34,929 nt of DNA from a virus (IMGVR_UViG_3300038379_000955:1-34929); one strand, 5' to 3'. Shown: positions 1 through 34,925, counted from the first letter of the stretch. Program-made: numbers and translations. Notes: generated by a model not told the origin, from the letters alone.

Positions 1-1091
1 CCCTAATTTTGGCGGGAACGGCCCCCGCCGGCCTGCGCGTGGCGGGGGAACTGATCCTGGAAGGGATCGAGGCCCCGATAGCTTTCCCGCCTGACTTCCA
101 GGCGGAAGTCATCGAGGTGACGGGCTGCCCGAACTTTGTCGGCTTCCCGCCCGACTTGCGGGCGCAGCACGTGACGGTGCGCTTTTGCCCGAACTTTGTC
201 GGCTTCCCGCCCGGCTTCCAGGCGCACATCATGGCCGTGAATGGCTGCGCGGCCTTTGTCGGCTTCGCGCCGGGCGGCCAGGCGGACGAAGTGTGGGTGG
301 AAAATTGCCCGCGGTTTGCGGGCTTCCCGCCTGACTTCCAGGCGGAAGATTATTGGGTGGGGGGCTGCCCCTTGTTCGCGGGCTTCCCGCCGGGCTGCCG
401 GGCGCACACCGTGTGGGTGGAAAATTGCCCGCTCTTTGCGGCTTTCCCGCCTGACTTCCAGGCGGATCATTATTGGATGGAAAATTGCCCGCTGTTCGCG
501 GCTTTCCCGCCCGGCTTGCGGGCGCAGCGCGTGACGGTGCGATTTTGCCCGCTGTTCGCGGGCTTCCCGCCTGACTTCCAGGCGGGCGCCATTCAAATAA
601 CAGCCTGCCCGAACTTTGCGGGCTTCCCGCCGGACGGCCAGGCGGACGAAGTGCGGGTGACGGGCTGCCCGAACTTTAATTTCCGCAGCCTGCCGCGCGG
701 CGGCGAGTTCTTCTGGAATGAGGTGCGGGTTGAGGACGCCGTGCTGAGCGGCCTGGCCCAGCCCGCCACCCTCACCGCCCAGGCGATTTTGCACGAGCGC
801 AACGTGGAAATCCGCCGCGTGATGCTGGAGCGCATGGGCTACGCCCGCTTTATCCGCGAATCCCAGGCGGCCACGCTGGATCAGGATAGCGACGCGGGCG
901 GGGTGCGGCGGCTGCTGAAGATCGCTTTCCCCAATGATGAGGATTTGGTGGTGGTCACCTACCACTGCCCCAGCACCGGGCGGCAGTATGTGACCCGCGT
1001 CCCACCGACCACCCGCACCTGTCATCAGGCGCTGGCCTGGATCGCGGGCTTTGACGACCCCCATCATTATAAGTTGGTCGCGGAGAGTTAA
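1..1091 (+). CDS. Variable LRR-like repeat protein with DUF6745-like C-terminus, copy A (10 repeats; 5' 25 nt missing from window)
   Basis: Position 1 corresponds to 32206/33535 of the paralogs, so the true start (MIDA.QAKALIL) is outside the window; 20-aa FxAxxVxVxxCPxFxxFPP repeats; C-terminal ERNVEIRRVMLERMG...CPSTGRQY..RVPP...ALAW motif. Confidence 0.85.
   Translation, partial: LILAGTAPAGLRVAGELILEGIEAPIAFPPDFQAEVIEVTGCPNFVGFPPDLRAQHVTVRFCPNFVGFPPGFQAHIMAVNGCAAFVGFAPGGQADEVWVENCPRFAGFPPDFQAEDYWVGGCPLFAGFPPGCRAHTVWVENCPLFAAFPPDFQADHYWMENCPLFAAFPPGLRAQRVTVRFCPLFAGFPPDFQAGAIQITACPNFAGFPPDGQADEVRVTGCPNFNFRSLPRGGEFFWNEVRVEDAVLSGLAQPATLTAQAILHERNVEIRRVMLERMGYARFIRESQAATLDQDSDAGGVRRLLKIAFPNDEDLVVVTYHCPSTGRQYVTRVPPTTRTCHQALAWIAGFDDPHHYKLVAES
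96..695 (+). repeat. Coding tandem array, 10 x 60 bp
   Basis: Exact 60-nt periodicity visible line to line (tgcccg...ttcccgcc...ggcg). Confidence 0.95.
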
Positions 1092-3843: not shown

Positions 3844-3876
3844 CTTGAAGTTGTCAACTCAGTTGACAACTTCAAG
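3844..3876. promoter_or_regulatory. Perfect palindrome, 16-bp arms (putative operator)
   Basis: CTTGAAGTTGTCAACT-C-AGTTGACAACTTCAAG, 6 bp upstream of a -35 box. Confidence 0.7.
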
Positions 3877-3882
3877 ACCGCT

Positions 3883-3911
3883 TTGACACGGCGGCTTTTT
3901 TGATTTATACT
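3883..3911 (+). promoter_or_regulatory. Sigma70-type promoter
   Basis: TTGACA(3883)-17 bp-TATACT(3906). Confidence 0.75.
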
Positions 3912-10449: not shown

Positions 10450-10487
10450 GACGCGCCGTTATTGAGGAAGCGGCGCGTCTTTTTTTT
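10450..10487 (+). terminator. Rho-independent terminator
   Basis: GACGCGCCG...CGGCGCGTC stem followed by T8. Confidence 0.8.
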
Positions 10488-10497
10488 GAGGCCAACC

Positions 10498-11661
10498 ATG
10501 AAACTGCATTTTTTTAGCAATGCTCCGCACGCGCCAACGGGCTACGGGGTGATGATGCGCCAGGTACTGCCGCGATTAAAGGCGCGCGGCCATGAGATTA
10601 CGTTAACTGCCTACTATGGCTTGCACGGTGCCCCGCTGACGCTGAACGGCATCACGATTTATCCTGGTAGCCAAGACGCCTTTGGCCAAGATGTGTTTGC
10701 TGCCGATGCCATATTTGTGGGCGCGGATGCTGTGATCAGCAATATGGACGTGTGGGTTATCGCGCCCGAACAAAGCGCGCAGGTACCTTGGTATCCCTGG
10801 CTGCCTATCGACCATGATCCAGTGCCGCCCGCCGTGCTAGAACACCTGCAACCGGCCAAGTTGCCTTTGTCTTATAGCCGTTGGGGGGTGGAAAAATTGC
10901 GCGAAGCGGGGCGAGAAGCGCTCTATGTGCCGGCGGGGGTGGATGTTGAAATTTTTAAGCCCCACGCCCAAAAAGACGCCCGCGAAAAATTGGGGTTGCC
11001 GGCTGAGGCCTTTATCGTGGGCATGAACGGGGCTAATAAGGGCAGTCCAGGGCGGAAATATTTTGATGGGCAAATTCGCGCTTTTGCGGAATTCGAAAAA
11101 CGACATCCTGAGGCTTTTTTATATCTGCACACCGATCCCTACAATGCCATTGGGGAGGATATTCCGCGTCTGCTTGAGCTGGCCGGCGTCAAGAACTACG
11201 CCTTTACGGCAACCTATCAGTATGTACGTGGCCTGATAACGCCCGAGACACTGGCGATGTTGTATAGTGCGTTTGATGTGCTGTTGCACGCCAGCATGAG
11301 TGAGGGTTTTGGGATCGTGATTATCGAGGCCCAGGCTTGTGGTTGCCCTGCGATTGTGACAGATTTTTCGGCCATGCCTGAACTGCTTTATGCCGGCTGG
11401 AAAGTAGGATATGTCGATAAATTTTGGACCGCGCAAGAAAGTTATCAGGTCATCCCCGCTGTCGCTGAAATTCGGGAGGCACTGGAGAAGGCCTATGCTG
11501 AACGCGGCAACCAGGCCTTGCGCGAACAGGCGCGAGTGGCGATGGTGCAGCATTTTGAGGCCGACCAGATGATCGATACTCATTGGAAAGCAGCCCTAAC
11601 ACGCATTGCGGCGGAGATTGCCCATGAAAAACTATCGGAACTAAGCCATGCTGCCACTTAA
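10498..11661 (+). CDS. Glycosyltransferase, GT-B fold (GT4-like)
   Basis: PTGYG N-terminus, GVD...FKP, EGFGIVIIEAQACG.P.I EX7E motif; ATG 10498 with GAGG. Confidence 0.9.
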   Translation: MKLHFFSNAPHAPTGYGVMMRQVLPRLKARGHEITLTAYYGLHGAPLTLNGITIYPGSQDAFGQDVFAADAIFVGADAVISNMDVWVIAPEQSAQVPWYPWLPIDHDPVPPAVLEHLQPAKLPLSYSRWGVEKLREAGREALYVPAGVDVEIFKPHAQKDAREKLGLPAEAFIVGMNGANKGSPGRKYFDGQIRAFAEFEKRHPEAFLYLHTDPYNAIGEDIPRLLELAGVKNYAFTATYQYVRGLITPETLAMLYSAFDVLLHASMSEGFGIVIIEAQACGCPAIVTDFSAMPELLYAGWKVGYVDKFWTAQESYQVIPAVAEIREALEKAYAERGNQALREQARVAMVQHFEADQMIDTHWKAALTRIAAEIAHEKLSELSHAAT

Positions 11662-12754
11662 GTATCCAGTCGGTAGGCCGCAATTGGGCATTGAGGAAGT
11701 GAGCGCCGTGAACGCGGTGGTTCGTTCGGGCCAACTGACGCAGGGCGAAAAAGTTGCCGCGTTCGAAACAGCCTTCGCGTCGTATATTGGCACACGTTAT
11801 GCGGTGGCGGTGAGCAGCGGCACTGCGGCCTTACACCTGGCATTGGTGGCGGCGGGGATTGGGGCCGGCGATGAGGTGATTGTGCCGAATCTGACCTTTA
11901 TCGCTACGGCAAACGCAGTAACCTACACCGGGGCAACGGTGATCCTTGCGGATGTAGACGACAGTTTGTGTCTGGATGCCAATGGCCTGGAAGGGTTGAT
12001 CACGCCCCGGACGAAAGCCATTATCCCAGTGCATTTATATGGCAATTTGGCCGATATGCCCGCGCTTAATCAATTGGCCCAAACGCACCATTTACGGGTG
12101 CTGGAGGATGCAGCCGAGGCCCTCGGCGCCGACTTGGGCGGCGTGCGGGTTGGTGGTTGGGGCCAGGCGGGATGTTTTTCGTTTTACGGCAACAAAACGA
12201 TCACCACCGGTGAAGGCGGGATGATCACTACCGATGACAGTTCGTTAGCGGCGCGGCTACGGCTGCTACGTGGCCAGGGAAAAACGCCAGGCCGGGATTA
12301 TTGGCATGAAATACGCGGCTATAATTATCGCTTGACTGAAATTCAGGCCGCATTAGGGCTAGCGCAGCTGAGTAAATTGCACGATGTGCTGGAAGCGCGG
12401 GCGCGTGTCTTTCGATTATACGAGCACGTTTTGAGCGATTTTGAATTTCCCAAGCGGACGCCGGGGCGGCACGGCTGCTGGGCTTTTGTGATGTTGCTGC
12501 CGGCGGCTGTGGATCGGGATGGGGTGCGGCGGTATTTGCTGGAAAAAGGCATTGAAACGCGGCCCGTTTTCCCGCTGCTTTCCGAAATGATTTATCCCAG
12601 TACGCGGCCCTACCCGGTGGCCAAAGCTGCGGCGCGCCGGGGGATCGTGCTGCCGACCTATCCCGATTTGAAAGATCGCGAAGTGATTGAAATTGCGGAA
12701 ACACTAAAAGAGGCGATTCATGCAAGTAGTCATGCTATCGTTATGGCGGAATGA
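11648..12754 (+). CDS. DegT/DnrJ/EryC1/StrS PLP sugar aminotransferase (perosamine synthase-like)
   Basis: SSGTAALHLAL, GDEVIVP..TFIAT, EDAAEALG, FSFYGNKTITTGEGG, GYNYRL. Confidence 0.95.
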   Translation: MLPLKYPVGRPQLGIEEVSAVNAVVRSGQLTQGEKVAAFETAFASYIGTRYAVAVSSGTAALHLALVAAGIGAGDEVIVPNLTFIATANAVTYTGATVILADVDDSLCLDANGLEGLITPRTKAIIPVHLYGNLADMPALNQLAQTHHLRVLEDAAEALGADLGGVRVGGWGQAGCFSFYGNKTITTGEGGMITTDDSSLAARLRLLRGQGKTPGRDYWHEIRGYNYRLTEIQAALGLAQLSKLHDVLEARARVFRLYEHVLSDFEFPKRTPGRHGCWAFVMLLPAAVDRDGVRRYLLEKGIETRPVFPLLSEMIYPSTRPYPVAKAAARRGIVLPTYPDLKDREVIEIAETLKEAIHASSHAIVMAE

Positions 12755-13427
12755 CGCCCAACGCGCCATTAAAAGCCGTCTACAGCACTTGTTGGCCAAG
12801 GGGGCGTCGGCCTATATTTGGGTGACGGGGGATAATGTAGATGATACCGAACACATTCTTAGCACTTCGGCCCACTGCCAAAAAGAAATTATTGTCCTGC
12901 GCAAGGATACACACATCCACAGTTCAGTTCCCGATGATCGTTTGCGCGGCCTCTCCCAAAGCGCCCAAGCCGGGCTGGATTATTTTGTGGATCACTATGC
13001 CCAGGCGGATTATCTGCTCATTCATGAATCGGATTTAATCAGCCCGCCGAACTTAATTGAGCGTATGATAGCATTATCACAGTCGAAAAACGGCGCAGCG
13101 GTAGCCGGCTGGGTGACGCTCCAGCTGGGCAGCGAAAAATTATTTTATGATACGTGGGCTTATCGCAAAGACGGGGTGAAATTCACCAATCATGCGCCTT
13201 TTCATGCCAGCTATGACGCCGAAACGCCGTTTGAAGTTGATAGTGTCGGCAGTTGTGTGTTGTTCCCCGCCCATCCCTTGCGGGATGGATGGCGTTTAAC
13301 GCAAGGGGGCATCGTGGAAATCTGCCAAAAAATGCAAGCGGCGGGGGTGCATATTTGGGTTGATCCGACGCTGGAAATTATTCAGCCGGTGGCGTTATGG
13401 AGTGCGGCCAGCCATGCCAATTTTTGA
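12720..13427 (+). CDS. Putative glycosyltransferase, GT-A-like
   Basis: DYLLIHESD (DxD-like), FYDTWAYR, VDSVGSC; embedded in sugar cassette. Confidence 0.6.
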   Translation: MQVVMLSLWRNDAQRAIKSRLQHLLAKGASAYIWVTGDNVDDTEHILSTSAHCQKEIIVLRKDTHIHSSVPDDRLRGLSQSAQAGLDYFVDHYAQADYLLIHESDLISPPNLIERMIALSQSKNGAAVAGWVTLQLGSEKLFYDTWAYRKDGVKFTNHAPFHASYDAETPFEVDSVGSCVLFPAHPLRDGWRLTQGGIVEICQKMQAAGVHIWVDPTLEIIQPVALWSAASHANF

Positions 13428-13881
13428 GCCTGTATTGATCCTCAAGCCCGAAGTGGTGAAAATTGATCCCCGCGCTCGCGTGGACAGTTTTGTAAAAATC
13501 GAAGGTGGCGAAGGGGTGGACATAGGGGCTTATGTCCACATTAGTTCTTTCTGCCATGTGAATATTGGCGGCGGGAGGGTGATGCTGGCGGCGGGCGCGG
13601 CCTTAGCCAGCGGCGCTAAAATATTAGGCGGATCCAACCAGCCCGCTGGTATCAGTATGAGCGCCGCCGCCCCGGCCGAGCAACAAGTAATCAGCCGTGC
13701 CATCACCCGCTTAGGCGAAAATGCTTTTTTGGGAGTGAATGCCGTGATCATGCCAGGCGTGCAGGTCGGAGCGGGGGCGGTTATTGGCGCGGGCGCGGTG
13801 GTCACCCAAAACGTGCCACCGGGCGAAATCTGGGCGGGGGTGCCAGCCCGAAAAATTGGCATGCGGAGCATAAAACAATGA
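13414..13881 (+). CDS. Hexapeptide-repeat (left-handed beta helix) acyltransferase
   Basis: LGENAFLGVNAVIMPGVQVGAGAVIGAGAVVT..VP...WAGVPAR. Confidence 0.9.
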   Translation: MPIFEPVLILKPEVVKIDPRARVDSFVKIEGGEGVDIGAYVHISSFCHVNIGGGRVMLAAGAALASGAKILGGSNQPAGISMSAAAPAEQQVISRAITRLGENAFLGVNAVIMPGVQVGAGAVIGAGAVVTQNVPPGEIWAGVPARKIGMRSIKQ

Positions 13882-22852: not shown

Positions 22853-22865
22853 AAACCATCCGCTA

Positions 22866-22888
22866 AGTTGTCAACTAAGTTAACAACT
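22866..22888. promoter_or_regulatory. Second copy of AGTTGTCAACT-N-AGTTGACAACT palindrome
   Basis: AGTTGTCAACTAAGTTAACAACT between convergent genes; one arm mismatch versus 3849-3871. Confidence 0.65.
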
Positions 22889-24075: not shown

Positions 24076-24425
24076 TTAAAAACTCCTTTCAGCCGTTTGG
24101 CCAACGCCCAGCGTTTACGGGTCACATACGGTATGGAAGGCCGTTTCCGACCCAGAGCCTTTTGGCGCTGCCTGTAGGCTTGCTGCACAGCGCGGTTCCG
24201 TTCGGGATTGTTAGCGCGCCAGCGCGCCCCTCGTTCGCGGCTTTTGGCCCGGCTTTCAGCCCAATTCGCGTAGTACTGCTCCATCTGGCGAGCATTATGA
24301 CAGGCACGGCATACGCGGCTGTTGCAACGAAAAGCCTCCGCGCGTTTTTCCTCACCGCACCGCCGGCACATTTTCATTTGCGTCGCGTTAATGAATTTCA
24401 TGTTGGATTTTAAGTCTCCTCCCAA
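24072..24425 (-). CDS. Basic Cys4 zinc-finger protein
   Basis: CRRC...CRAC then Arg-rich helix, like HNH N-termini but with no HNH domain; start may be internal. Confidence 0.55.
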   Translation of the reverse strand: MGGDLKSNMKFINATQMKMCRRCGEEKRAEAFRCNSRVCRACHNARQMEQYYANWAESRAKSRERGARWRANNPERNRAVQQAYRQRQKALGRKRPSIPYVTRKRWALAKRLKGVFK

Positions 24426-24739
24426 AAATTCCGCAGGGCGTCTAAGCCCGCATCCAGCGCTAAAATACTCCCCTCCTCAGCCTTGCCAATTTCAGCCGCT
24501 CCCAATTGGCCGGTAGCGGCGCGATAGAGTAGTTCGCGTACCAGGGCCGAGGCCTTTTCGCTGCCATGCTGGGCTATATACTGCTGTAAAAAAAACGCTG
24601 CCACTGCACTTTTTTTATCGCGCTGGGGAAATCGCATATTGAAACGCGTACGCACTGGGGGAAAGTGCCGCACCGTTTCTAACTGCGATTCCCCCAAGGG
24701 AACCAGTACGAGTGGTGGCCGCGCGGTTGTCTGCGTCAT
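24410..24739 (-). CDS. Putative ParR-like adaptor / DNA-binding protein
   Basis: Translationally coupled downstream of ParM-like gene; strand-helix-helix pattern (FNMRF...SALVRELLY). Confidence 0.45.
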   Translation of the reverse strand: MTQTTARPPLVLVPLGESQLETVRHFPPVRTRFNMRFPQRDKKSAVAAFFLQQYIAQHGSEKASALVRELLYRAATGQLGAAEIGKAEEGSILALDAGLDALRNFWEET

Positions 24740-25842
24740 TAATGTTTTGCGGCCAGCGCCTGCTTGGCCAACATTGAGCGGTACATGCCGCGTACATGTC
24801 CCATGTGCGGCGCGTTTTTCGCGGCCAAACGAACGCTGTCGTGGGGCAAATCTAGCCAGGGCGCCACTAACACGGAGCCGCCGCCGCCCAAAATGATCAT
24901 GCTGGCCTGATCCGCCAAATCCGCTCGCTCATACCACAGCGAACGAATTTGCGGGACGAACCACCGACTCACCACTTCGTTGATGATATGATTCAAATTA
25001 TGAGTAGTCCCGCGAAAGATCACCTGGCCGCTGCCGAAGGCCGCCGCCGTTTCAGCGGGAGTCATCAACAGCGGAATACCACTGCCGACCACGGCATTCG
25101 CAAAGGCATTCAGCAAATTCCCAATGCCATAATTCGTGCTGCTGCTGCTATTTTTGACGTAGGAGCCACGATCAAAAAATGTGATGTCGGTGGTGCCATG
25201 CCCAATGTCCAGGAGGCCCACCAAACCGCCCAGCATCATTTGATTGTTGGAAAGCAGCCCCCGCCCATCAGCCGCAATCGCCAACAATGCCCACAGGCCA
25301 AAACTTTCTGCGCTGACGCTGCATTTGCGAATCTTGAGAGTTTTTTCGATCAAACGCCAGCTTCCCTTGATATTTTCATAATGTCCCACACGGGCGGACT
25401 TCCCCTCAAACAGCAATTTCAAATGAGTTCCATAGGTGGTCCCGTCCGTGGCATAGGGCGCGTCCTTGATGGCCGCTGGCTGGCTCAAATATAAATTAAG
25501 ATCGGTACCATCCAGTTTATCCATATTGAGGGCCAGATTGCCCCACACTAAATTTTGATAGTAGCCGCCGCCGGCATGCGTATAACGGGCAATGCCCGTC
25601 ATGCGATTCAGCGCTCCGCGAAAATGCGGCGTGGTGGCCAGATCGCCCATGACATAGCGGCTGCCGTTCAGGATCACACACGAGCGGTAGAAGGCCTCCA
25701 CGTCAGAAGCCGACAATTCCGTTGCATCAAAACGATCCGCCACCTCGGCATATGCGCTCGGGGCCGACCATTCCTGCTTGGCTGCCGCCCCCCACATCCC
25801 CTTAAGATAGCCATTCCCTAAATCAATGTGGACTTCGTTCAT
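24739..25842 (-). CDS. parM: ParM/StbA actin-like ATPase
   Basis: Phosphate-1 IDLGNGYLK, phosphate-2 LDIGHGTTD, adenosine LGGGGS; ATG 25842 overlaps upstream stop. Confidence 0.85.
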   Translation of the reverse strand: MNEVHIDLGNGYLKGMWGAAAKQEWSAPSAYAEVADRFDATELSASDVEAFYRSCVILNGSRYVMGDLATTPHFRGALNRMTGIARYTHAGGGYYQNLVWGNLALNMDKLDGTDLNLYLSQPAAIKDAPYATDGTTYGTHLKLLFEGKSARVGHYENIKGSWRLIEKTLKIRKCSVSAESFGLWALLAIAADGRGLLSNNQMMLGGLVGLLDIGHGTTDITFFDRGSYVKNSSSSTNYGIGNLLNAFANAVVGSGIPLLMTPAETAAAFGSGQVIFRGTTHNLNHIINEVVSRWFVPQIRSLWYERADLADQASMIILGGGGSVLVAPWLDLPHDSVRLAAKNAPHMGHVRGMYRSMLAKQALAAKH

Positions 25843-26108
25843 TGCCCCGCCTGTTTGGCCGCGAAAAGGCAATAACTGTCTCCTTGGAAGAACTGCCGAA
25901 TAAAGAGCGTATATTCATTAGCATGCCGCGCACCATAATTCCGCATCGCCATTAAGCAAAGATGGCGCTCGTGCGGATTGTCAAAGGCCACGATCATCCC
26001 CTTGCCGCCGATTTCCAGCGCGTGAAAGGCAGCCAGCACTTTTTTCCAGGAGCGAATCCCAAACGCCCCTGGCTGAAATTCCACATCCGTCTTAATCTCA
26101 TGCGTCAT
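25839..26108 (-). CDS. Hypothetical protein
   Basis: First gene of leftward operon, AAGGTG RBS. Confidence 0.55.
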   Translation of the reverse strand: MTHEIKTDVEFQPGAFGIRSWKKVLAAFHALEIGGKGMIVAFDNPHERHLCLMAMRNYGARHANEYTLFIRQFFQGDSYCLFAAKQAGQ

Positions 26109-27581: not shown

Positions 27582-27901
27582 TAGATACGTGGAAAAGTGT
27601 GATTGCGATGTTGGCGGCCCCGCGCCCCGCGCCCATCGTGGTGATTTGCCCCGCATGCGGGGGCGCCTGCGAACAGTATGAACTGGATATTTTGGGCCGG
27701 TGCGACGCTTGCTTTAGCAGCCCACCGGCCCCACCGCCGTCTGACTTCTGCCCCGCATGCGGGGGCGAAGGCTATATGGAGACACGCCAGACCTGGGATG
27801 GGGACTGGTACGTCACGCCCTGTCCGGCCTGTCACGCTTACCTTGACGACTATGATCGGGATTGGGCTTACGATCATGGCCGCCGCCATTTGGGAATTTA
27901 G
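27578..27901 (+). CDS. Cys-rich zinc-finger protein
   Basis: Four CxxC pairs including CPACGGEG. Confidence 0.6.
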   Translation: MIDTWKSVIAMLAAPRPAPIVVICPACGGACEQYELDILGRCDACFSSPPAPPPSDFCPACGGEGYMETRQTWDGDWYVTPCPACHAYLDDYDRDWAYDHGRRHLGI

Positions 27902-27918
27902 AGTTTAGGAGAAAAACA

Positions 27919-28803
27919 ATGAATCCCGAAGCTTATAAAGCTGTTTTTGGGAGTGCGCCAAAAGCAGCAGTAGATTACGCATTATTGTTGGCGTCAAAGC
28001 TGGGCCTGGACGCCGAGTTGGGCCACATTATTCTCATGAAGCGCAGCGTGCGCGACGGCCAGCAGTATACTGAGAAGTGGAGTCCCTATGTGACTCACAA
28101 AGGCCTGCTGCATATTGCCCATGCCAGTGGGCAGTTTGATGGCATGGACACTGAAATTGGCCAGGACGAAAACGGCCAATACTGCATTGCGCGCGTTTGG
28201 CGCAAAGACATGGGCCGCCCGATTGTGGGCCGCGTTTACCGCGTTGAATATGATACCAAAAAATCAACGTGGCTCAGCCACCCGCTCTCGATGCTGGCCA
28301 AAACTGCTGAAGCATTTTGTCTCAGGCGCGCTTTTGATGTTCCGCTGACCGCCGCGGAAGAAATGGGCCAGGAGCAGCTCAATGACGGGCCGGCTCCTGA
28401 CGGTTCGTCTGACCCTCAACCTGAACATCAGTTTAACGAGGCAGATTATCCACGGCCCAGCGCAACCCTCGACATGCTAACTAAGTATTGGCATGCCAAA
28501 AGTTTGGCTTTGGCCATGCACAATCCTTGCAACCCCAACCAGGCTGCTGCACTGCGTGCAGATTTGATTGCCGCCCTAGGGCAAGATATCGCTCAATATT
28601 TGGTGCAGCAGCTTTTACAGGCGAAGGCCGTTAAAAACTTAAGTTTGGGCCAGGCCTTCGTGTTGGCCAGTTGGCTGAAAAGCCCAGCCGCACCGGCGGA
28701 GCTGGAATTAATCAAGCAGGCCTACCACGAGGCCCCAATCCAGTCCTCCGCAAGCCCACAGCCCCCCGATTTGCCGTCCCAAGCGACCGAGGCGGAAGAT
28801 TAG
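27919..28803 (+). CDS. Bet/RecT-family single-strand annealing protein
   Basis: GL..IAH.SGQFDG, VWRKD, EY.....W...P..ML.K.AE...LRRAF; AGGAG RBS before ATG 27919. Confidence 0.8.
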   Translation: MNPEAYKAVFGSAPKAAVDYALLLASKLGLDAELGHIILMKRSVRDGQQYTEKWSPYVTHKGLLHIAHASGQFDGMDTEIGQDENGQYCIARVWRKDMGRPIVGRVYRVEYDTKKSTWLSHPLSMLAKTAEAFCLRRAFDVPLTAAEEMGQEQLNDGPAPDGSSDPQPEHQFNEADYPRPSATLDMLTKYWHAKSLALAMHNPCNPNQAAALRADLIAALGQDIAQYLVQQLLQAKAVKNLSLGQAFVLASWLKSPAAPAELELIKQAYHEAPIQSSASPQPPDLPSQATEAED

Positions 28804-30251: not shown

Positions 30252-30322
30252 AAAAGTTTTCAACACATCTGACAACTTTTGTAAATATCTGAAAATACTT
30301 GACAACTACTGGCGTGATGATT

Positions 30323-31355: not shown

Positions 31356-31413
31356 CCCCCTAAAAATTAGGGGGTATCGCCTACTTGACAAAGTATATCT
31401 CGCGTGCTATACT
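31356..31413 (+). promoter_or_regulatory. Cassette promoter P1 with upstream inverted repeat
   Basis: CCCCCTAA-AAA-TTAGGGGG, then TTGACA(31385)-17 bp-TATACT(31408). Confidence 0.85.
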
Positions 31414-31438
31414 TTATATATAGATAGGAGATAAAGAG

Positions 31439-31735
31439 ATGTTGAATAGGTTAATGCAGATATTTTTTAAGAAAGAACCCCCGCCCCCCCCCCCAAGCCC
31501 CGATCCCGCGCCCTTTTGGGCGGAGATCGAGTTCGCGGAACTCATCGCGTACGCCCAACAGGGCGGGGAAATTTACTTTCCCGTGCTGCTGCGGGGTCGC
31601 GAGATTCGCGACTGCTGGCAGCGGTCAGCAGTGCAGTATCAGGTCCGCTGGGTCGGCGAGGACCGACCTTCCAACGACTACGTTTATCCAGAGGCTTTGG
31701 TCACGGTGCCGCGCAGCGTGACTGTGACCGGGTAG
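31439..31735 (+). CDS. Small protein with poly-Pro and chromo/SH3-like C-terminus
   Basis: AGGAG RBS; YQVRWVGEDRPSNDYVYPEAL. Confidence 0.6.
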   Translation: MLNRLMQIFFKKEPPPPPPSPDPAPFWAEIEFAELIAYAQQGGEIYFPVLLRGREIRDCWQRSAVQYQVRWVGEDRPSNDYVYPEALVTVPRSVTVTG

Positions 31736-31810: not shown

Positions 31811-32110
31811 ATGTGGCGTCATGGAGATGTTTTGCTGGCTAAGGTGGAAGCCCTGCCCGCTGGGGCCAAACCGCACGCTGGGGCCACCCTGGCTTACGGG
31901 GAAGTGACCGGGCATAGCCATCGTTTTGCCGATCCCGAAAGTGTGGAACTTTTTATGGGGTTGGAGGGGTTGCTGTTTGTCCGCGTGATTGGCCCAAGCG
32001 CCACGCTGATTCACGAAGAACACCAACCCATCACCATCCCGCAAGGGGTGTATCGGGTCTGGCAGCAACGGGAATACAGTCCGCACGCCATCCGGGCGAT
32101 GCTGGACTAG
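31811..32110 (+). CDS. His-motif small beta protein, partner of DUF6745-like genes
   Basis: RHGDV...LA.GE.TGHSH...HEEH..I.IP.G.Y.V..QREY; family recalled as adjacent to DUF6745 genes. Confidence 0.75.
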   Translation: MWRHGDVLLAKVEALPAGAKPHAGATLAYGEVTGHSHRFADPESVELFMGLEGLLFVRVIGPSATLIHEEHQPITIPQGVYRVWQQREYSPHAIRAMLD

Positions 32111-32180: not shown

Positions 32181-33416
32181 ATGATTGATGCAGATCAGGC
32201 TAAAGCCCTAATTTTGGCGGGAACGGCCCCCGCCGGCCTGCGCGTGGCGGGGGAACTGATCCTGGAAGGGATCGACGCCCCGATAGCTTTCCCGCCTGAC
32301 TTCCAGGCGGAAGTCATCGAGGTGAATGGCTGCCCGAACTTTGTCGGCTTCCCGCCTGACTTCCAGGCGGAAGTCATCGAGGTGACGGGCTGCCCGAACT
32401 TTGTCGGCTTCCCGCCTGACTTCCAGGCGGATCATTATTGGGTGGGGGGCTGCCCCTTGTTCGCGGGCTTCCCGCCCGACTTGCGGGCGCAGCACGTGAT
32501 GGTGCGCTTTTGCCCGCTCTTTGCGGCTTTCCCGCCTGACTTCCAGGCGGATCATTATTGGGTGGAGCATTGCCCGAACTTCGCGGGCTTCCCGCCCGGC
32601 TTGCGGGCGCAGCGCGTGCGAGTGGAAAATTGCCCCTTGTTCGCGGCTTTCCCGCCGGGCTGCCGGGCGCACAGCGTGTGGGTGGAAAATTGCCCGAACT
32701 TTGCGGCTTTCCCGCCCGACTTCCAGGCGGATCATTATTGGGTGGGGCGCTGCCCCTTGTTCGCGGGCTTCCCGCCCGACTTGCGGGCGCAGCACGTGAT
32801 GGTGCGCTTTTGCCCGCTCTTCGCTGGCTTCGCGCCGGGCGGCCAGGCGGATCATTATTGGATGGAAAATTGCCCGAACTTTGTCGGCTTCCCGCCCGGC
32901 TTGCGGGCGCAGCGCGTGACGGTGCGTTTTTGCGCGGCCTTTGTCGGCTTCGCGCCGGGCGGCCAGGCGGACGAAGTGCGCGTGACGCGCTGCCCGAACT
33001 TCAACTTCCACCACGTGCCGTCCGGCGGCGAGTTCTTCTGGAATGATGTGCGGGTTGAGGCCCGCGTGCTGGATTTGCTGGCTCAGCCCGCCACCCTCAC
33101 CGCCCAGGCGATTTTGCACGAGCGCAACGTGGAAATCCGCCGCGTGATGCTGGAGCGCATGGGCTACGCGCGCTTTATCCGCGAATCCCAGGCCGCCACG
33201 CTGGATCAGGATAGCGACGCGGGCGGGGTGCGGCGGCTGCTGAAGATCGCTTTCCCCAATGATGAGGATTTGGTGGTGGTCACCTACCACTGCCCCAGCA
33301 CCGGGCGGCAGTATGTGACCCGCGTCCCACCGACCACCCGCACCTGTCATCAGGCGCTGGCCTGGATCGCGGGCTTTGACGACCCCCATCATTATAAGTT
33401 GGTCGCGGAGAGTTAA
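32181..33416 (+). CDS. Variable LRR-like repeat / DUF6745-like protein, copy B (12 repeats)
   Basis: AGGAG RBS; 411 aa; same caps as copies A and C. Confidence 0.9.
   Translation: MIDADQAKALILAGTAPAGLRVAGELILEGIDAPIAFPPDFQAEVIEVNGCPNFVGFPPDFQAEVIEVTGCPNFVGFPPDFQADHYWVGGCPLFAGFPPDLRAQHVMVRFCPLFAAFPPDFQADHYWVEHCPNFAGFPPGLRAQRVRVENCPLFAAFPPGCRAHSVWVENCPNFAAFPPDFQADHYWVGRCPLFAGFPPDLRAQHVMVRFCPLFAGFAPGGQADHYWMENCPNFVGFPPGLRAQRVTVRFCAAFVGFAPGGQADEVRVTRCPNFNFHHVPSGGEFFWNDVRVEARVLDLLAQPATLTAQAILHERNVEIRRVMLERMGYARFIRESQAATLDQDSDAGGVRRLLKIAFPNDEDLVVVTYHCPSTGRQYVTRVPPTTRTCHQALAWIAGFDDPHHYKLVAES
32301..33020 (+). repeat. Coding tandem array, 12 x 60 bp
   Basis: 60-nt periodicity. Confidence 0.95.
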
Positions 33417-33478
33417 GATACCCCCTAAAAATTAGGGGGTATCGCCTGCTTGACAAAGTATATCTCGCGTGCTATACT
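33417..33478 (+). promoter_or_regulatory. Duplicated cassette promoter P2
   Basis: GATACCCCCTAA-AAA-TTAGGGGGTATC, TTGACA(33450)-17 bp-TATACT(33473); one substitution versus P1. Confidence 0.85.
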
Positions 33479-33509
33479 TTATATATAGAAGAATAGATAG
33501 GAGATAAAG

Positions 33510-34925
33510 ATGATTGATGCAAATCAGGCTAAAGCCCTAATTTTGGCGGGAACGGCCCCCGCCGGCCTGCGCGTGGCGGGGGAACTGATCCTGGAAGGGA
33601 TCGAGGCCCCGATAGCTTTCCCGCCTGACTTCCAGGCGGAAGTCATCGAGGTGAATGGCTGCCCGAACTTTGTCGGCTTCCCGCCCGGCTTGCGGGCGCA
33701 GCACGTGACGGTGCGCTTTTGCCCGAACTTTGTCGGCTTCCCGCCTGACTTCCAGGCGGATCATTATTGGGTGGGGGGCTGCCCCTTGTTTGCTGGCTTC
33801 CCGCCGGGCTGCCGGGCGCACAGCGTGTGGATGGAAAATTGCCCGCTGTTCGCGGCTTTCCCGCCGGGCTGCCGGGCGCAGCGCGTGCGAGTGGAAAATT
33901 GCCCGCTGTTCGCGGCTTTCCCGCCCGACTTCCAGGCGGAAGATTATTGGGTGGGGGGCTGCCCCTTGTTCGCGGGCTTCCCGCCTGACTTGCGGGCGGA
34001 AGATTATTGGGTGACGGGCTGCGCGGCCTTTGTCGGCTTCCCGCCCGACTTGCGGGCGCAGCACGTGACGGTGCGCTTTTGCCCGCGGTTCGCGGGCTTC
34101 CCGCCCGGCTTCCAGGCGCACATCATGGCCGTGAATGGCTGCGCGGCCTTTGTCGGCTTTGCGCCGGGCTGCCGGGCGCACACCGTGTGGGTGGAAAATT
34201 GCCCGCTCTTTGCGGCTTTCCCGCCTGACTTCCAGGCGGATCATTATTGGATGGAAAATTGCCCGCTGTTCGCGGCTTTCCCGCCCGGCTTGCGGGCGCA
34301 GCGCGTGCGAGTGGAAAATTGCCCGAACTTTGCGGCTTTCCCGCCCGACTTCCAGGCGGATCATTATTGGATGGAAAATTGCCCGAACTTTGTCGGCTTC
34401 CCGCCCGGCTTGCGGGCGCACAGCGTGCGGGTGGAAAATTGCCCGCTGTTCGCTGGCTTCGCGCCGGGCGGCCAGGCGGACGAAGTGCGCGTGACGCGCT
34501 GCCCGAACTTCAACTTCCACCACGTGCCGCCCGGCGGCGAGTTCTTCTGGAATGATGTGCGGGTTGAGGCCCGCGTGCTGGATTTGCTGGCTCAGCCCGC
34601 CACCCTCACCGCCCAGGCGATTTTGCACGAGCGCAACGTGGAAATCCGCCGCGTGATGCTGGAGCGCATGGGCTACGCGCGCTTTATCCGCGAATCCCAG
34701 GCCGCCACGCTGGATCAGGATAGCGACGCGGGCGGGGTGCGGCGGCTGCTGAAGATCGCTTTCCCCAATGATGAGGATTTGGTGGTGGTCACCTACCACT
34801 GCCCCAGCACCGGGCGGCAGTATGTGACCCGCGTCCCACCGACCACCCGCACCTGTCATCAGGCGCTGGCCTGGATCGCGGGCTTTGACGACCCCCATCA
34901 TTATAAGTTGGTCGCGGAGAGTTAA
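33510..34925 (+). CDS. Variable LRR-like repeat / DUF6745-like protein, copy C (15 repeats)
   Basis: AGGAG RBS; 471 aa. Confidence 0.9.
   Translation: MIDANQAKALILAGTAPAGLRVAGELILEGIEAPIAFPPDFQAEVIEVNGCPNFVGFPPGLRAQHVTVRFCPNFVGFPPDFQADHYWVGGCPLFAGFPPGCRAHSVWMENCPLFAAFPPGCRAQRVRVENCPLFAAFPPDFQAEDYWVGGCPLFAGFPPDLRAEDYWVTGCAAFVGFPPDLRAQHVTVRFCPRFAGFPPGFQAHIMAVNGCAAFVGFAPGCRAHTVWVENCPLFAAFPPDFQADHYWMENCPLFAAFPPGLRAQRVRVENCPNFAAFPPDFQADHYWMENCPNFVGFPPGLRAHSVRVENCPLFAGFAPGGQADEVRVTRCPNFNFHHVPPGGEFFWNDVRVEARVLDLLAQPATLTAQAILHERNVEIRRVMLERMGYARFIRESQAATLDQDSDAGGVRRLLKIAFPNDEDLVVVTYHCPSTGRQYVTRVPPTTRTCHQALAWIAGFDDPHHYKLVAES
33630..34529 (+). repeat. Coding tandem array, 15 x 60 bp
   Basis: 60-nt periodicity. 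Confidence 0.95.

Follow-up and report, generated by a model that had tools for sequence, protein, structure and literature searches.

Three neighbouring genes in a phage genome encode proteins that share their two ends and differ in the array of repeats between them. This raises two questions: by what process did the arrays diverge, and what purpose might three such proteins serve? The sequence-only reading that preceded this analysis regarded them as a phage-encoded family with VLR-like architecture, a recombination-diversified set of binders fused to a constant effector domain. The evidence presented here inclines us, with modest assurance, towards the view that three LRR-DUF6745 paralogs, their arrays reshuffled by ordinary recombination, are interchangeable target-binding subunits that would dock through DUF6745 on a shared His-rich partner.

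Genome setting and layout of the locus

The window (the whole 34,929-bp virus record that was analysed) encodes terminase, portal, capsid, tape measure, primase and helicase, as identified by Pfam and PHROGs scans. Open reading frames at 3-1091, 32181-33416 and 33510-34925 confirm the coordinates previously claimed for the three LRR genes, here called A, B and C (Table 1). Both contig ends fall within DNA common to the paralogs, which makes a circular genome probable, running His gene-B-spacer-C-spacer-A-primase, and the three genes probably stand in tandem across the contig ends. The locus sits within a run of replication genes, with an initiator upstream and the primase and a helicase downstream.

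The ParM/Alp-like gene suggests a phage-plasmid life style; no integrase was found among the ORFs scanned (30 with Pfam, 40 with PHROGs). The 98-aa ORF at the head of the operon had no Pfam, PHROGs or PADLOC match. Reference-based scans of viral contigs, metagenome contigs and GenBank phages returned no close relatives of the phage, though diverged ones may escape such scans. From the nearest named relatives we would guess at a host among the Chloroflexota.

Table 1. Coordinates of the features discussed, counted from the first base of the window
Feature	Position	Strand	Remarks
LRR-DUF6745 paralog A	3..1091	+	5' end cut by contig start; 10 units at 84-683; followed by primase gene
Paralog A, DUF6745 match	about 756-1061	+	Pfam
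ParM/Alp-like partition protein	24739..25872	-	Pfam/PHROGs
RecT/Bet-like single-strand annealing protein	27862..28803	+	Pfam/PHROGs; candidate driver of repeat mixing
Original operon promoter	31356..31437	+	palindrome, sigma-70-type site at 31385-31413, ribosome-binding site
ORF of 98 aa, no known family	31439..31735	+	first gene behind operon promoter
His-rich partner, 99 aa, phrog_27831	31811..32110	+	single copy; PHROGs E 1.7e-13
LRR-DUF6745 paralog B	32181..33416	+	12 units at 32289-33008; first copy 3' of His-rich gene
B-C spacer, 93 bp	33417..33509	+	operon promoter copy joined to B's ribosome-binding region
LRR-DUF6745 paralog C	33510..34925	+	15 units at 33618-34517

The sigma-70-type site of the operon promoter has an extended -10 element and matches the consensus at 11 of 12 positions. 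The spacer between B and C contains a palindrome and a near-consensus sigma-70 site of its own (33450-33478), and repeats positions 31356-31421 with a single mismatch in 66 bp. Since the spacer holds a copy of the promoter, a near-consensus sigma-70 promoter was thereby acquired by C, and probably by A as well, whereas the His gene remained in one copy. The sequence-only reading had overlooked both the His-rich gene and this second promoter. Taken with the strong promoters, the siting of the LRR locus amid replication genes points to its early expression. Terminator-like matches inside the arrays were read as by-products of the GC-rich unit.

Probably three arrays rather than one

One explanation of the locus is that a short-read assembler scrambled one or two true arrays into three. 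The placement of both contig ends in shared constant DNA is in keeping with this, and, according to PMC11761791, Illumina assemblies fail on WD40 arrays of high identity. The longest exact matches between or within arrays measure 146, 73 and 71 bp. The first of these, a block common to A and C, could be mis-phased; as all others are at most 73 bp, it is the only one that comes near short-read length.

A freshwater metagenome run (X1), which may be the source sample, holds 84% of sampled words from the last 4.9 kb of the record. It consists of contigs at about 16x, of which 77% was read. Although depth in this run is no strict copy number, unique DNA stands at 15.7, a spacer-specific contig at 30.5, the A/C-type N-terminus at 30.5 and the B-type N-terminus at 17.5. 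Twofold depth of the spacer and of the A/C-type N-terminus fits two spacers and three genes. The C-terminal contig, at 30.6, is twice as deep as unique DNA rather than three times as expected, and positions 551-750 of A are uncovered; both observations would suit an artefact. Positions 33103-33269 are uncovered as well, but with 77% of the run read neither gap is counted as a true absence. Against an artefact stand the presence in X1 of a junction piece specific to A (188-265) and a separate contig of 1762 bp, perhaps from the same sample, which encodes residues 166-411 of B unchanged. The encoded fragment keeps the order of B's units and is the only near-identical protein found. We conclude that the three arrays are probably real and that their creation by an assembler is very improbable.

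Anatomy of the arrays

Arrays A, B and C comprise 10, 12 and 15 units, each of exactly 60 bp and free of indels. All three genes have a common N-cap, a first unit EVIEV (B has two EVIEV units), a last unit DEVRV and a nearly identical C-terminal tail: in the final 411 bp the number of differing positions is 1 between B and C, 18 between A and C, and 19 between A and B. On these counts, caps and ends, our unit-by-unit reading agrees with the sequence-only one. The latter had also spoken of exact 60-bp repeats in different orders. Exactness holds for length, but the units are not identical copies: the 37 units include 32 distinct DNA sequences and 30 distinct peptides, with a mean DNA identity of 68%. 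Similarly, the three arrays do differ, but as mosaics below the scale of the unit and not as permutations of whole units.

Variation within the unit is uneven. Per-position entropy peaks at positions 8, 9, 11, 13 and 14 (2.1-2.8 bits), and positions 1, 3, 7, 15 and 18 do not vary; these five residues, like the frame and the length, are preserved in all 37 units.

A predicted LRR solenoid and variable face

Pfam LRR models gave no match for the phage proteins themselves. Homolog units nevertheless align position by position with the LxxLxLxxN/CxL register, the phage having Phe, Val or Tyr for Leu, which bears out the register originally proposed. Structure prediction likewise returned the expected LRR solenoid. 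The AF2 model of A (116 aligned sequences) has a mean pLDDT of 95.3 and one beta-strand per unit, at positions 6-13; a model of B alone has pLDDT near or above 90 across most of the array. The fold-search matches are LRR proteins, among them RPP1 (Z 16.8, rmsd 4.1, 257 aligned) and SDS22 (Z 16.0).

In LRR proteins the LxxLxLxxC strand forms the concave binding face. In VLRs, too, it is the concave strand face that binds, as described in PMC3308329. The five variable positions of the phage unit are x positions of LxxLxLxxC, and register and strand assignment together put these residues on what is predicted to be the concave strand.

A homogenised scaffold and a diverse strand

The extent to which this pattern is peculiar to the phage can be judged from a comparison set of 397 units from 118 of 120 homologous proteins. 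At strand positions, between-unit identity is similar in phage and homologs (0.22 versus 0.18); at the other free positions it is 0.58 in the phage and 0.23 in the homologs. The concentration of variation on the predicted concave strand, claimed from the sequence alone, thus exceeds the homolog pattern. Strand content differs as well: Trp occupies position 11, which is predicted to be exposed, in 16 of 37 phage units and in none of the 397 homolog units. A contrast between scaffold and strand is also seen in tandem Anaerolineae LRR paralogs (0.46-0.52 versus 0.11-0.22), and a homogenised scaffold in 12 of 114 other repeat proteins, none of the 12 with DUF6745.

Of 136 pairs of informative sites, 85 show all four gametes; over a distance of 30 bp, linkage (r2) declines from 0.17 to about 0.05. 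Such a distribution means exchange inside units and between paralogs, and with the blocks shared between arrays it supports the earlier proposal of recombination as the mixing process. Recombinases of the Rad52-like kind act without RecA on diverged DNA (PMC3945230); given this tolerance of divergence, the RecT/Bet-like protein would be a sufficient candidate for the mixing. We regard concerted evolution by ordinary homologous recombination as the evolutionary mechanism with good, if incomplete, confidence.

No sign of positive selection was detected, two crude ratios both being below 1. The pairwise pN/pS at exposed strand codons is 0.69, a value blurred by recombination and by codons hit more than once. 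An allele network, similarly blurred, gave 0.41 at exposed strand codons (28 nonsynonymous and 15 synonymous steps) and 0.66 at other codons.

Programmed diversification

If the arrays were the work of a VLR- or DGR-like machine that assembles or mutates them from donor cassettes in each generation, then donors, enzymes and fresh products might be expected. The units do resemble the patchwork of assembled VLR modules, as PMC3308329 describes these, and the caps are fixed, with the variable face predicted to be the concave one. For 13 sampled units, however, the best match outside the arrays was 36 of 60 bases, which leaves no silent donor, and no DGR template copy was found outside the arrays. 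No reverse transcriptase or deaminase was recognised among 30 ORFs scanned with Pfam and 40 with PHROGs, although a deaminase of the host could conceivably serve. Variable columns have no adenine bias (consensus G14, C10, T7, A6). New repeat orders or joints were absent from the contigs of run X1, contigs being prone to drop rare variants. All three genes are open coding copies, A being cut at the contig start.

A DGR mechanism was accordingly rejected for want of a reverse transcriptase match, a template copy and adenine bias, and a VLR mechanism for want of an incomplete germline gene, donor cassettes and a deaminase match. The idea of a VLR-like system with which the locus was first described is not supported, in view of the lack of silent cassettes for the units sampled, of a deaminase or reverse transcriptase among the ORFs scanned and of new repeat orders in the X1 contigs, together with dN/dS below 1, and we consider programmed diversification scarcely credible.

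A bacterial module with a His-rich partner

The C-terminal domain matches DUF6745 (PF20530), as had been supposed: all three tails score 72.5-74.1 bits against a gathering cut-off of 27 (E about 1e-20), over profile positions 93-198 of 206. Atlas matches of this domain were self-matches. A search of 4717 candidates yielded 672 homologs, of which those inspected have the same cap, Cys-type LRRs and the same tail. The best 80 of 193 genome loci belong mainly to Chloroflexota, Planctomycetota and Deinococcota, and 72 of 86 bacterial family members have no internal 15-mer repeat. The gene type is thus a widespread, mostly single-copy bacterial family and not a phage invention.

Across 84 loci (80 bacterial and 4 viral), the His-rich gene adjoins the LRR-DUF6745 gene in 79, and four of the five misses are cuts at contig ends. 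The His protein and DUF6745 are fused, in both orders, in 3 of 55 longer relatives. Linkage and fusions make it more plausible that the C-domain docks the His-rich partner than that it is itself a constant effector, the role first assigned to it. Residues H4, H35, H37, H68, E70 and H71 of the His protein are invariant, and such a set of His and Glu residues suggests a metal site; the protein is likely to be metal-binding. It had no sequence match in the PDB, and the Atlas gave only unnamed clusters. Fusions of the His domain to HNH and ASCH domains were set aside, since three sequences led us to judge them probable over-long gene calls.

From the 80, 35 bacterial loci with long flanks were chosen by hand; in 24 of them a gene of the STM4011-4015 set lies no more than two genes downstream (counted by hand). 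No STM4011-4015 gene was recognised in the phage among the ORFs scanned with Pfam and PHROGs.

Viral relatives are of another kind. Of 537 viral His loci the best 80 were examined, and the DUF6745 C-domain is present in 46 of these. Within these 46, 35 are internally repetitive, the arrays inspected being low-complexity, tetrapeptide-like runs; the LRR motif occurs in none, and one locus has two DUF6745 copies. Within the same best 80, a further 32 contigs stop no more than 1 kb from the His gene, and in 26 cases the contig breaks off in repeats. Repetitive arrays in most phage DUF6745 genes suggest that the N-terminal array could be a spacer. In a quick tree, with bacterial rows chosen for their likeness to the query, the C-domain of our phage groups with the bacterial LRR-type clade and not with other phage DUF6745 proteins (SH-aLRT 88, below 95). 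By this grouping, the phage is likely to have taken up the module from a bacterial host.

What three proteins might be for

The account to which we incline joins these observations as follows. A bacterial host would have been the source of the module, and a tandem triplication of the LRR gene, promoter copies included, would have led to expression that is strong and either early or constitutive. Concerted evolution would have followed from gene conversion and unequal exchange, both inside single arrays and from one array to another, with RecT/Bet assisting. The variable LRR faces would have host proteins as their ligands, and docking on the single His-rich partner would fall to the constant DUF6745 tail, as linkage and fusions suggest. 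The most likely purpose would be to weaken a conflict system of the host, for which the STM4011-4015 cassette found with this module in bacteria is an example. We hold the combination of binding and docking to be reasonably likely; a target in host defence is possible but doubtful. An evolvable binder repertoire of three promoter-equipped paralogs, with concave faces continually reassorted by the phage recombinase and selected against changing host defence proteins around one His-rich catalytic partner, is a tentative reading, to be entertained rather than adopted.

A different explanation needs no selection for specificity. The genes may have been triplicated for more protein, with the array as an arm of variable length; slippage and recombination would homogenise the scaffold, and old strand alleles would simply persist. 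The dN/dS below 1 at exposed sites, the strong promoter copy in the spacer and the internal repetition of 35 out of 46 DUF6745 genes from phages (drawn from the best 80 among 537 viral His loci) are all in accord with dosage and neutral turnover, as is the similar contrast of scaffold and strand in bacterial paralogs and unrelated repeat proteins. Such turnover fits less well with the retention of frame, length and five invariant residues in 37 of 37 units, or with Trp at exposed position 11, found in 16 of 37 units and in 0 of 397 homolog units. Nor was the His partner amplified alongside the LRR genes. Strand alleles of the same family, moreover, are adjacent twice where 6.0 cases are expected (P=0.035), a deficit that two-unit duplications could also explain. 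We judge dosage and neutral turnover to be an unlikely explanation on the whole.

It is also conceivable that the locus is a defence carried by a phage-plasmid, with the LRRs as sensors of superinfecting-phage proteins and the His protein as the effector by which the host is protected. The ParM-like gene, the lack of an integrase among the ORFs scanned and the near-consensus sigma-70 promoters would be consistent with this, and sensor-like variable repeats with a constant partner are reminiscent of fungal NLRs as PMC11761791 presents them. PADLOC, however, gave no matches for four proteins at E up to 0.1, the proteins have no nucleotide-binding or known toxic domain, and the position within a run of replication genes fits early lytic expression. 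A role in defence or exclusion appears quite improbable.

Comparison with known systems

The phage locus is a member of the LRR-DUF6745/His module. With the bacterial LRR-DUF6745/phrog_27831 loci of Chloroflexota, Planctomycetota and Deinococcota it shares the N-cap, the 20-aa Cys-type register, the tail and the His neighbour. The bacterial genes are usually single-copy, have diverged repeats and often stand beside STM4011-4015; the phage differs in its three paralogs, its homogenised scaffold with Phe for Leu and its Trp-rich strand. The tandem long-array paralogs of Anaerolineae (loci L010 and L040) likewise combine paralog expansion, a conserved scaffold and a variable strand, one of five genomes checked (G002) having three DUF6745 genes. 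Their repeats are, however, of a 23-aa Asn type, with no identical units (maximum DNA identity 0.88), and lie in a bacterial genome. The tetrapeptide-array proteins of other phages (IMG/VR; Microcystis phage LMM01, BFVD) have the same C-domain, the His partner and a repetitive N-terminal part, and the LMM01 protein was a structural match in the fold search. Their repeats are short and of low complexity, not LRRs (LRR motif in 0 of 46, from the best 80 of 537 loci).

Two eukaryotic systems invite comparison. Lamprey and hagfish VLRs resemble the phage genes in fixed caps, a variable number of LRR modules, patchwork modules and a concave binding face (PMC3308329); the incomplete germline gene, flanking donor cassettes, CDA-type deaminase and somatic repertoire of VLRs were not recognised in the phage. 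The Podospora HNWD/HET-E WD40 genes, according to PMC11761791, show concerted homogenisation, hypervariable surface positions, gain, loss and shuffling of repeats, and exchange between paralogs. They differ in being WD40 and not LRR proteins, in NACHT and death domains that the phage proteins lack, in unit identity (80-100%, versus a mean of 68% in the phage) and in diversifying selection, which that source reports and which was not detected in the phage. By analogy, HNWD concerted evolution seems the closer analogue of the phage arrays than VLRs.

Literature searches returned no paper describing the system, and within the library searched no paper contains the term DUF6745, though supplements may list it. 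New in our searches is a phage locus that unites the LRR type with three promoter-equipped paralogs and with a Trp-rich, reshuffled strand on a homogenised Phe scaffold.

Although DUF6745 and the His-rich partner occur widely in both bacteria and phages, they are unstudied. The present locus offers a natural experiment, with three predicted binding faces, one tail and one partner. If neutral turnover is the true explanation, the locus remains of value as a clear-cut viral example of a repeat gene evolving in concert. If the repertoire reading is true, then phages use repeat shuffling for intracellular counter-defence, beyond tail fibres; fungal HNWD and VLR receptors would then have a counterpart in viruses, the arrays would form a natural library of modular binders, and binder engineering would find a ready-made scaffold in the 20-aa unit with its fixed caps.

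Repeat arrays in bacteria and other phages

Tandem paralogs with long arrays of 23-aa LRRs occur in Anaerolineae genomes (locus L010, 2572-5528; locus L040, 2-2884); three of these four paralogs carry a DUF6745 tail, and one Anaerolineae genome (G002) holds three DUF6745 genes. Among 35 bacterial loci from the range L007-L083, hand-picked out of 80 for their long flanks and counted by hand, the STM4011-4015 cassette adjoins the His/LRR-DUF6745 pair in 24; both orientations occur.

In the best 80 of 537 viral His-gene loci (L085-L164), combinatorial short-repeat arrays are usual in the DUF6745 partner of the His gene. In 32 of these 80 loci the contig stops no more than 1 kb beyond the His gene, and 26 of the 32 early ends fall inside repeats. 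Accordingly, the phage DUF6745 gene is often the cause of assembly breaks; in many phages it may be hypervariable.

Other features of the phage

The virion is likely to be sugar-modified, as predicted from a gene group lying among the head and neck genes. A ParM/Alp-like actin gene, together with the failure to find an integrase among the ORFs scanned (30 with Pfam, 40 with PHROGs), makes the virus a probable phage-plasmid. The perfect-armed palindrome found at both promoter copies (that of the operon and its duplicate in the B-C spacer) is a candidate operator or terminator.

Palindromes, promoter-like sites and other genes in the window
Feature	Position	Remark
Three related 24-bp near-palindromes	3848-3871, 22865-22888, 30254-30277	candidate repressor operators
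Promoter-like sites	3883-3911, 30269-30296	beside two of the three near-palindromes
Palindrome with perfect arms	31356-31373, 33421-33438	immediately upstream of each promoter copy
Glycosyltransferase, DegT-type aminotransferase, second glycosyltransferase, hexapeptide acyltransferase	10462-13881	among head and neck genes
ParM/Alp-like actin gene and small neighbours	24410-26108	- strand

LRR units on other proteins

Six proteins (P0332, P0368, P0373, P0391, P0411 and P0297) contain Cys-type LRR units of 18-21 aa that are nearly identical to one another and differ chiefly in the strand; these proteins bear other small caps and lack DUF6745. Some have strand alleles resembling those of the window phage. 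The Cys-type LRR unit is possibly a mobile repeat module.
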